A DNA stretch of 63,274 bases, filler included, from Collodictyon triciliatum (Eukaryota): the NCBI GenBank assembly GCA_043381765.1. It is 16 parts of 16 records of this genome, joined end to end, with 100 filler letters (N's around TTAATTAATTAA, not from the genome) between each part and the next. Parts side by side here need not be neighbours in the genome. Positions count along the whole stretch, not along the records: positions 35,685 to 39,544 come from JBHJMP010006786.1; 15 more parts are not named here. One strand, written 5' to 3'. The notes beneath the pieces are model-generated. The model ran no database searches. It was not told where the DNA came from and saw only the letters and a program-made list of their open reading frames with translations. Position numbers and translations under genes: made by a program. This document shows, piece after piece, positions 36,074 to 39,000 of the stretch (its first letter is position 1; each line of letters begins with the position of its first letter).

Positions 36074-39000
36074 CTAAAATCCTTCAATCTCTTCCTCTTC
36101 ATAATCTGGAGCGTCGACTTCGGGCTCAGATTCTGACTCAAGCTTTTCAACATTTTTGGTCTGACGCAATTGCTGTGGTGCATGTGATATTTGGGGTGGT
36201 TTCAATTGTTGAGATGTCTGGGGTGGATGGCGCTTGTCTAGTGTGTCAGAGTTTCTATCACTGCTATCATCAGAAGTGATTGAGTCTTCAAAATCATTGA
36301 ATTCTTGCTTTCCTTTGGTGTTCATTGTTTGTTGAACCTCGACAGTCATCTCTGGCGTTTGATTTGTTAGTTGGCTCTCCAGTCCGTGGTTAGGATGTGT
36401 GAGTTCCTCACGTGGTGACTTGACTTTGTTTGTATTGACTTCCGAACCCCTCCCTTTGGAATCTGGTGACGATTTTGGAGATGAAGATGAGAATGAAGAT
36501 GAATAAACACTACGCGAAGTTGAAGAGGACGAATTTGCCATTTTTTTGGAGGCTGATGCATTTGGAGGAGAGTTGGCGTATCTTATGTCCTCTTGGATGC
36601 TTGTAGACTGTGTTGATGGGAGTTTTGCATCTATTTGAGAGTTGGTCAAAACCATTTCAGAAATGGCGACCGATTCTTCAGGATGTGAGGTCGCTATTTG
36701 TTCCGATTCTCGCCCGTGTCTTTGTTGTGGTTTGGGTTCGGATTTTGGTTCTGACTTCGGTTCGGATTCAGGCTCAGGTTTAGGCTCAGGTTTAGGCTCA
36801 GGTTTAGGCTCAGGTTTAGGCTCAGGTTTAGGCTCAGGTTTAGGCTCAGGTTTAGGCTCGGATTTAGGCTCGGATTTAGGCTCGGACTTAGGCTCGGACT
36901 TAGGCTCGGACTTAGGCTCGGACTTAGGCTCGGCTCTAGGCTCAGACTTTGGTTCAGATTTGGGTAAGGCAGCTCTGGGAGTTCGCCGTCCTGTGGAACC
37001 TCCACCAATAGAATTAACCCTATCTAACTTTGGAGCAGGTAATGACTCAACTTTCAGCGAGCTATGAAGCGACGATGGTGGTCGCTTTGGGATTTGATTT
37101 CTTTCTTTTGAGTTCAGTGAACCATGGAGGGAGTTTGGCTCTTTATCCATTTTAAGATCGGAATGATATGAAGCAACTCCCTCTCTTCTTAAAAAAGCTG
37201 ACTCCTCGGCAATCCTATGTTGTGATTCAGCCAGTAGATCTTGGATATCTAATCCGATTGTCGCCTGTTGTAAAGATTTAAGATGCTCTTCGGTCAACCC
37301 AGGTGTGGTTTCATACGCTGTCGGGTTTGAGGATACGTGCAAAAGCTCAGATTTTGCGTCCGTAGGCATTTCAGCTTCCAGTTCATCATCATCGTCGATG
37401 GTAGTAACATTTTCTGGTAAACTCCGGAGACTTCTCCCTTAACAGTAATGGCGTTAATAATATAAATAATGACAGTGACGGTAATCGTAATCACAATCAT
37501 AATCATAATCATAATCATAATCATAATCATAATCATAATCATAATCATAATCATAATCATAATCATAATCATAATCATGATGATAGTGATAGTGATAGTG
37601 ATAGTGATAGTGATAGTGATAGTGATAGTGATAGTGATAGTGATAGTGATAGTGATAGTGATAGTGATAGTGATAGTGATAGAGATAGTGATAGTGATAG
37701 TGATAGTGATAGTGATAGTGATAAGCCTTGTTCTTCATGAATAATGCCGAGTGCAAGTGATATCATACATACAACCGGAATATATTATAGGTAAGTAATA
37801 TATGTTCGAATATTACAGTTGCTTGATTGCGTAAAATCAAGGGCTCCTTTTGTTCTCAAGAGGCTGGGTATGTCACTATGCCATGTTTTTAAGAAGGGAG
37901 AGCGGACGGTCCTTGACCTCGTCAGGGCGGCTGATATGATTTGTTCCTGAGCTTTTTTTGGCATTTGCATAATGACGTGTGAATCTAAAAAAAAAAATCG
38001 TAATATTAATGTCATCTCTTTGTATCAAATATACACGTTTATATAATTGAATAAGTTAAGATCGATTGGATTTGATGAGTTTTACCATTTATATTGAAAT
38101 TAACATACAGTGTTGGTATTATAACAACACGGAACTCATTATGAACAGAAAATACATGAAAAATCATTGGAATAATCCATTTTCGGTCTTACCCAACCAG
38201 GTGATGTAAATGGCCAGAGAAGAAGATCCTTGAATATTTTCTCTTCCAAAAGTATACACACGTTCAGATTCAATCCGGCTGACTAATTCTTTAAAGGTTG
38301 CATTTCCTATCATCGCTAATTTTTCGATCACAGTGACTCTTTTGGGAATATGGACTTCTAGGTTCAGAGTTCGAATCGGCGCCTTGGATGGTTAACAGAT
38401 CAATAGATATAGTTTTGCATCTTTCCATTTTGGTATCAAAATTAAAAATTAAAAAATGAGTCCAAATTAGAGGATAATAGCGGCATATCATATTCTAATT
38501 AAGGATTTTTTTTTCCTTTATTCGATTCAAAGATATTCTAATTAAGGATATTCATCCAAATGAATCAAAGACAGTTAGGGTCTCATATTAGTTATATATT
38601 GCCTGAAAAAAAAAACCTTCCATCGTCCATACAGCAGATTCAACGATAGCTCATCGATAAGTGTATCTGAGTCATGTGCCAACTCATTTGTAATTATGTA
38701 GTTAATGATAAAAGTCCTCTGACTTTTTGTTCTGGCAAATTTCCATGAGAATCGAAATTCACTGTGCTCTGTGGCCTGATAAGTAAAAATATATTATCTA
38801 ATAACTATCTAAAAGCTATAGAACATGATACATATGTCAATTAAAAAAGAACTAGGATAATTTAAGCATTCTAGTTTTAAAAAACGGTTATGTGTTCTTC
38901 TAGATATGCTATCCCTAAAATGCCTACTATTTTAAACTCACTGTCTTGTGAAAATATGTGTTTGTGTCCTTGGCACATCGAATCTTCAAAAGTGTAACTT

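Follow-up and report, generated by a model that had tools for sequence, protein, structure and literature searches.

The window analysed here, a stretch of 63,274 bases from the eukaryote Collodictyon triciliatum, consists of 16 contigs, each about 3.9 kb long and separated by linkers of the form N44-TTAATTAATTAA-N44. Within it a 16-mer, CTTTGAATCGAATAAA, forms the terminus of a long interspersed nuclear element (LINE) and also recurs as short solo inserts that carry target-site duplications (TSDs) and tails; the 5' ends of these inserts cluster, and copies of intermediate length are absent. The 16-mer has five exact matches in the window, at 13720(+), 35989(+), 38517(-), 51080(-) and 57721(-), where 0.00 are expected (100 shuffles); contig 10 carries two of them and contigs 4, 13 and 15 one each, so that four of the 16 contigs are involved. 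All of these positions reproduce an earlier reading of the sequence alone, which had reported five exact copies on four contigs. No copy with one or two mismatches occurs in the window, and a search allowing up to three mismatches adds three matches, all with three mismatches, against 1.89 expected.

Two partial LINE copies are present, one of which ends in the 16-mer:
51072-51095, minus strand: LINE 3' terminus, read from the sequence as the 16-mer followed by G and A7
51096-51403, minus strand: 3' part of an L1-like LINE of the tail-A subfamily, comprising the last part of ORF2 and a 3' untranslated region (UTR) of about 75 nt, and running off the contig end
3480-3869, minus strand: copy of a second, related LINE subfamily with another terminus (...ACAAATAAAGTGAACCCAAGAAAAA), 89.5% identical to 51096-51403 over its last 300 nt

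The sequence-only reading had placed the 51080 copy at the extreme 3' end of a LINE-like element, and LINE body does adjoin it at 51096-51403. An independent metagenome contig, L003 (1157 bp), is 96.3% identical to this body (283/294) and continues from it into the identical 16-mer, followed by GG and A10. Both tail-A copies that bear body (51072-51403 and L003) have the 16-mer as their LINE 3' end, and in each the AATAAA poly(A) signal is followed directly by the tail, G A7 in the window and GG A10 in L003, as at the 3' end of a LINE. The unit lies wholly within the 3' UTR, about 75 nt downstream of the stop of the open reading frame (ORF) at ...CCACGGTAG. Of the tail of the related copy at 3480-3869, the window contains no solo copies.

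The L003 ORF contains the C-terminal zinc-knuckle region typical of L1-like LINEs (zf-RVT, PF13966; 32.4 bits against a cut-off of 27.5, E = 1.5e-7). A word-indexed protein search returned no longer relatives of this ORF, and an exhaustive HMMER search returned 14 matches, among them the three nearest full-length relatives, of 1226-1275 aa (P0009, P0010 and P0012), that are 29-38% identical to it over 66-181 aa. All three contain Exo_endo_phos and RVT_1, and two of the three contain zf-RVT. Because of the zf-RVT region of L003 and the domains of these relatives, the parent is classed by sequence as an L1-like LINE of the apurinic endonuclease (APE) type with a poly(A) tail, its own sequence covering the C-terminus of ORF2 only.

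The remaining four copies stand apart from any LINE body. They and their flanks are as follows:
38507-38532, minus strand: solo micro-insert of 26 bp, CTTTGAATCGAATAAA + GG + A8, in sense orientation in an intron of a minus-strand gene
38490-38506, no strand assigned: TSD copy 1, 17 bp, ATATTCTAATTAAGGAT, whose plus-strand 3' end is the putative primer for the T-run
38533-38549, no strand assigned: TSD copy 2, 17 bp, identical to 38490-38506
57719-57736, minus strand: solo micro-insert of 18 nt, the 16-mer + GG, any A-tail running into the A-rich first bases of the TSD
57701-57718, minus strand: imperfect TSD, downstream copy, TAAAATGAATATTGTGTG, matching 57737-57754 at 15/18 positions
57737-57754, minus strand: imperfect TSD, upstream copy, TAAGATGCATATTGTATG, abutting CTTTG directly
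35987-36022, plus strand: solo insert made up of the LINE's CA, the 16-mer and an unusual tail, AGGGGGGATAAAAGGTAT, with flanks GAGAGAAA
13720-13742, plus strand: solo copy, 16-mer + AGAAAAA, 16 nt past the stop of a lipase-like ORF

On the plus strand, 38490-38549 reads ATATTCTAATTAAGGAT, then T8 CC and the reverse complement of the 16-mer, then ATATTCTAATTAAGGAT again. The GAGAGAAA repeats that flank the 35987-36022 insert occupy 35979-35986 and 36023-36030, and the flanks of copy 13720 match at 9/11 positions (13707-13717 vs 13743-13753). Direct repeats abutting each boundary were compared with those at 6000 random sites with tandem repeats masked; microsatellites inflate the unmasked null, and the p values given are from the repeat-masked one. 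Flanking repeats exceed chance at three of the four solo copies, namely 38517 (17/17, p about 3e-4), 57721 (15/18, p about 0.004) and 35989 (8/8, p about 0.011), while the match at 13720 is not significant. The sequence-only reading had described the solo insert at 38507-38532 with its A8 between perfect 17-bp repeats, and the insert at 57719-57736 between 18-bp repeats matching at 15/18 positions; both were recovered, and the TSDs and A-tails bear out its proposal that these are retroposed micro-inserts matching a LINE 3' end.

The LINE body is absent from four of the five window copies, and self-BLAST finds just 24-38 bp in common around the copies and no common upstream body among the solo ones. 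The bases before CTTTG are GCTGCA in the LINE and GAATAT, TGTATG, TTGGTG and GAAACA in the solo copies. Three solo copies diverge from the LINE exactly at CTTTG, copy 35989 retains the CA of the LINE, and at the two clear junctions there is no microhomology with the LINE upstream of the boundary.

Other readings of these copies were considered and rejected. The 26-bp insert lacks inverted termini, and TSDs vary in length (8, 11, 17, 17 and 18 bp), which does not fit the footprint of a DNA transposon or a miniature inverted-repeat element. A short interspersed nuclear element (SINE) was rejected on the size of the unit (16-18 nt) and its unrelated upstream sequences, and the only tRNA in the window (50265-50346) adjoins no copy. 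Snap-back or twin priming was considered for copy 13720, just upstream of which lies a 9-bp inverted match, CGATTCAAA; the remaining copies lack such a match, and about 0.06 such matches are estimated to arise by chance over the five copies. Finally, the initiator-like TGCACT was dismissed as a transcription start at the boundary, the A before CTTTG being found only in 35989 among the four window copies.

All four body-less copies begin 0-2 nt from one base, and the scatter usual for 5' truncation is not seen. The lengths of tail retained in the window are 16 nt (three copies), 18 nt (one) and at least 308 nt (one), and outside the two LINE copies self-BLAST detects no window site that retains 19-300 nt of the LINE. 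Shorter lengths were surveyed over the 33 AATAAA sites in the window that are followed by an A-rich run, a tail filter that 57721 and 35989 do not pass. Here the motif match is 16 nt at three sites, 10 nt at one (58835) and at most 7 nt at the rest, and matches of 7 nt or less are what chance predicts. The site at 58835 is the sole candidate of 8-15 nt; it shares the GGAAAA tail but has no recognisable TSD:
58835-58851, minus strand: candidate 10-nt copy, ATCGAATAAA + GGAAAAG

The sequence ATCGAATAAA itself occurs eight times in the window, against 0.29 expected; three of these sites lie beyond the full copies, and one of the three, in a coding exon, is probably a chance occurrence. Since four copies fall at 16-18 nt, none at 19-300 nt and one at 8-15 nt, a smooth geometric fall-off does not fit.

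A scan for short inserts between direct repeats revealed three further A-tailed micro-inserts with perfect TSDs:
61395-61436, plus strand: poly(A)-only insert, A8, between perfect 17-bp repeats ATGATGTCACTGATTCA
58993-59045, minus strand: 17-nt insert TGAATAAAAGAAGAAAA between perfect 18-bp repeats AAGAAACGAAATAATTTT
61557-61602, plus strand: 24-nt A-rich insert of uncertain source RNA, between perfect 11-bp repeats ATCATACCGTA

In all three the A-rich end lies against the downstream repeat. The insert at 58993-59045 possibly consists of the last 7 nt of the LINE tail and an A-rich tail, its source RNA being uncertain. The TSDs of the A8 insert (61395-61436) and of the insert at 38490-38549 are of equal length. 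Nick contexts were read for three of the four perfect-TSD inserts (58993 was left out), and the nicks on the primer (bottom) strand are GGAT|ATTC at 38517, TCAT|AGAT at 61395 and TGAT|ATAG at 61557. The extra micro-inserts plausibly come from the same machinery as the 16-mer solo copies, and ultra-short scars of target-primed reverse transcription (TPRT) are thus general in this genome. The preferred end is 16-18 nt where copying goes beyond the tail. It is a preferred and not a fixed boundary, because copy 35989 keeps CA and because other inserts between TSDs hold 0 or about 7 element bases. The sequence-only reading was right that the 5' ends are non-random, but its description of the boundary as fixed and programmed was too strong.

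Runs X1 and X2 supply spliced RNA contigs that are about 99% like the window. They define the following gene, with introns at 37985-38192, 38382-38615, 38775-38940 and 39086-39150:
37817-39298, minus strand: unannotated gene, spliced RNA contigs, four GT..AG introns

The 38517 insert lies in sense orientation in intron 38382-38615, the ends of which read CT..AC on the plus strand. The intron around the insert is outside contig cover, X1 and X2 skipping it and X3 and X4 covering 38773-39375 only. At 38501-38557 the summed RNA-contig depth is 627 (X1) and 607 (X2), against 4-19 on exons. X1 and X2 contribute 43 records each here, and flanks were read in the pieces listed, with 77 further pieces outside that list; among the pieces listed, the flanks on both sides of the motif are unlike both the window and the LINE, starting from the boundary or a few bases off it. 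At least one RNA contig passes from the motif into a long A-run. We take the RNA contigs to represent further solo contexts and the use of the signal for polyadenylation, presumably including the pieces outside the list. Solo inserts occur about once per 12-16 kb in the window, and the many motif-bearing RNA contigs in each of the two runs indicate that they are probably numerous, in keeping with the abundance first suggested from the sequence.

Elsewhere, the 16-mer followed by an A-rich tail has 7 matches in 596 Gb of prokaryote genomes, which are chance matches, and none in viral contigs. In JGI metagenomes it was found at 19 loci, of which one (L003) is the LINE. Fifteen of these loci were rejected as relatives, their contexts being unrelated and the matches probably due to chance. 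The other three (L002, L012 and L019) have in common an unrelated repeat that contains the 16-mer (...GGGATGC + 16-mer + GTCAAAAGGAGACTC...), and in L019, a 5.1-kb contig, this repeat lies near both ends in inverted orientation. Neither the 16-mer nor its reverse complement had a match in literature text, supplementary files being outside the search, and a literature search on very short LINE insertions found nothing relevant.

The coding content of the window is eukaryotic, with long ORFs for proteins with HMG-box, Myb, WD40, LRR and NHL domains and, on the basis of spliced RNA contigs, GT..AG introns of 65-234 nt. Small shares of window sequence are contained in runs labelled as freshwater, lake-water and aquaculture metagenomes. 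Numerous contigs terminate in trinucleotide or hexanucleotide microsatellites or in homopolymers, and the microsatellites at contig ends are probably why the assembly breaks there. Homopolymer runs at 31365-31623, 35499-35584, 14812-14911 and 3976-4029 reach about 259 nt for T and 54 nt for A. Two further features were recorded:
51757-54635: satellite of 2.9 kb built of 54-bp units in a higher-order period of 328 bp, the units about 80% identical to one another, making up most of one contig
50265-50346, minus strand: tRNA-Leu(AAG), found by Rfam and ARAGORN, on the same strand as the LINE and about 725 bp downstream of its 3' end

We consider it likely that the inserts are abortive, dead-on-arrival TPRT products of an APE-type L1-like LINE with a discrete early end, and the enzyme that made them was presumably this LINE's own. 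The LINE RNA template would end ...GCUGCA CUUUGAAUCGAAUAAA G(G) A(n). The endonuclease would nick one strand, in the context 5'-NAT|A-3' in the three perfect-TSD inserts read, and the freed 3' end would prime on the A-tail; the reverse transcriptase would then copy the tail and, beyond it, no more than the last 16-18 nt, and a second-strand cut 8-18 bp away would generate the TSD. On this mechanism elongation would mostly fail very early and at discrete points, either inside the tail, giving A-only inserts, or beyond it, where the most frequent stop would be 16-18 nt upstream of the tail. That stop may correspond to the edge of the piece of RNA held in the initiating ribonucleoprotein (RNP). 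The template might be a short remnant of the LINE RNA 3' end, reduced by trimming or cutting to the part that protein protects, or the enzyme might fail the initiation-to-elongation step at that point. A boundary set by the RNP is favoured because no stable hairpin is predicted, Rfam finds no ribozyme or tRNA-like element and the clear junctions show no microhomology.

Several observations weigh against this explanation or limit its reach. The boundary is not the only one, since inserts between TSDs also occur with 0 and about 7 element bases, and the excess of ATCGAATAAA may reflect a minor class of tail copies of 10-11 nt. The weight of the 16-18-nt class is biased, because its members were found by motif and shorter ones via perfect TSDs alone. 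The sample is small, being four solo window copies and a handful of RNA contexts among those listed; of the four, copy 35989 has an atypical, G-rich tail (AGGGGGGATAAAAGG) where the other copies have A-runs, and the flanking match of copy 13720 has a p of about 0.23 (repeat-masked null). The parent is known from the C-terminus of ORF2 and the 3' UTR, and reverse transcriptase and endonuclease domains are seen in its relatives alone. Neither a full-length LINE nor an empty-site allele was seen, the contigs of the runs leaving out the intron around the insert. That the RNP causes the stop is something we infer.

Random 5' truncation of the ordinary kind, by a reverse transcriptase of low processivity, with the fixed boundary an artefact of searching for the exact 16-mer, would accommodate the small number of solo copies, the inserts with 0 and about 7 element bases, and the invisibility of copies shorter than 16 nt to a motif search. 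We nevertheless think it improbable, in that four of the five copies of at least 16 nt end at 16-18 nt and none at 19-300 nt. By our own arithmetic, a stop chance of 1/12 per base gives p about 0.003 that all four end by 18 nt; raising the chance to 1/6 gives p about 0.03 and predicts about 13 copies of 8-15 nt, against the one candidate. The 16-18-nt unit might instead be an independent micro-retroposon, resembling the Drosophila 'suffix', that one LINE subfamily captured at its 3' end, the solo copies being the primary family. This is unlikely but has some appeal, given that solo copies outnumber the LINE-linked copy by 4 to 1 in the window, that the related LINE copy (89.5%) has another terminus and lacks CTTTGAATCG, and that a 10-nt indel between the tails of the two LINE copies starts at the solo boundary in one of six co-optimal alignments. 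That tail alignment is ambiguous, however, and L003 aligns differently with the 3480-3869 copy. Moreover, 16-18 nt leave no room for a promoter and polyadenylation at a signal 10 nt on would not be expected for an RNA starting at the first base of the unit. An independent unit would also still need something to fix its 5' end, so that the problem is moved and not solved.

Structure in the RNA could also set the boundary, if the LINE 3' UTR held a hairpin or a self-cleaving ribozyme, and ribozymes are known in other retroelements. The CTTT of the unit is indeed complementary to its AAAG, as had been pointed out from the sequence, but the unit alone folds at 0 kcal/mol and the 3' UTR folds no better than shuffles, either in the window copy (-12.7 kcal/mol, z = +0.54) or in L003 (-12.0 kcal/mol, z = +0.41). 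The stem-loop reverse transcriptase stop proposed with that pairing is therefore not supported. No ribozyme or tRNA-like Rfam match was found in L003 even at E up to 10, or in the window at gathering score, and we regard a boundary of this kind as very improbable. By analogy with solo long terminal repeats, recombination between 16-mers at both ends of full-length elements would leave solo units with an exact boundary and intact TSDs. We give this origin hardly any credence: 16 bp is short for frequent recombination, terminal direct repeats are not known as a feature of L1-like LINEs, and neither the extra CA at 35989 nor the A-only and 17-nt inserts, with the same TSD lengths, would be explained.

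The inserts, as abortive TPRT products, resemble 5'-truncated L1-type LINE copies in their identity to the element 3' end, their A-tail, their variable TSDs (8-18 bp) and an AT-rich nick, and differ from the usual truncated LINEs in that 16-18 nt are kept, 5' ends fall within 2 nt of one another, and lengths of 19-300 nt are absent in the window. The closest precedent in the sources consulted is the Drosophila suffix, which is found as separate copies, at the 3' ends of genes and at the end of the F and Doc LINEs; it supplies a poly(A) signal, has no RNA polymerase III promoter and shows more transcription from its separate copies than from the LINE (PMC1868783, PMC3136478). Separate copies in unrelated contexts, a place at the extreme 3' end of a LINE and a poly(A) signal are likewise found together in the 16-mer unit, which shares with the suffix the lack of such a promoter and the greater transcription of its separate copies. 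The suffix is SINE-sized and includes the last reverse transcriptase coding domain (PMC1868783), whereas our unit is 16-18 nt of 3' UTR. In snakes, the relevant passages of PMC3157835 describe CR1 LINEs with 3' tails seeded as microsatellites and with their last 600-800 bp over-represented; the massive spread of a LINE extreme 3' tail via heavily truncated copies is similar to that seen here, but the CR1 tail is a simple repeat that later expands and its truncation is broad, where our tail is a 16-mer of unique sequence that begins at a discrete point. SINEs with the 3' tail of a partner LINE of the stringent type also share a LINE tail, presumably recognised by ORF2, as outlined in the portion of PMC4176376 cited; unlike them, the inserts have no SINE head, no promoter and mutually unrelated upstream sequences.

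If the clustered 5' end holds genome-wide, these inserts would rank with the shortest retroposed units that have a defined start, and they would provide a natural read-out of the initiation-to-elongation step of TPRT, which is hard to study in cells. Scars of 18-26 bp are invisible to repeat maskers and could form a large unannotated class of insertions. Because each copy carries AATAAA, one copy is intronic in sense orientation and at least one RNA contig joins the motif to an A-run, the inserts may shape the formation of host-gene 3' ends. A bolder proposal, which we offer tentatively and think rather unlikely, joins genome-wide cassettes to an RNP with a true template boundary, telomerase-like in effect by analogy, that would hold the last 16-18 nt and the A-tail; the protein would be unable to read past its own binding site, or would carry an RNA stub trimmed to its footprint. 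If this is true, each attempt would deposit a defined 18-26-bp cassette with a working AATAAA signal, and thousands of portable poly(A) signals would have been sown through the genome, for genes to use or to splice around.

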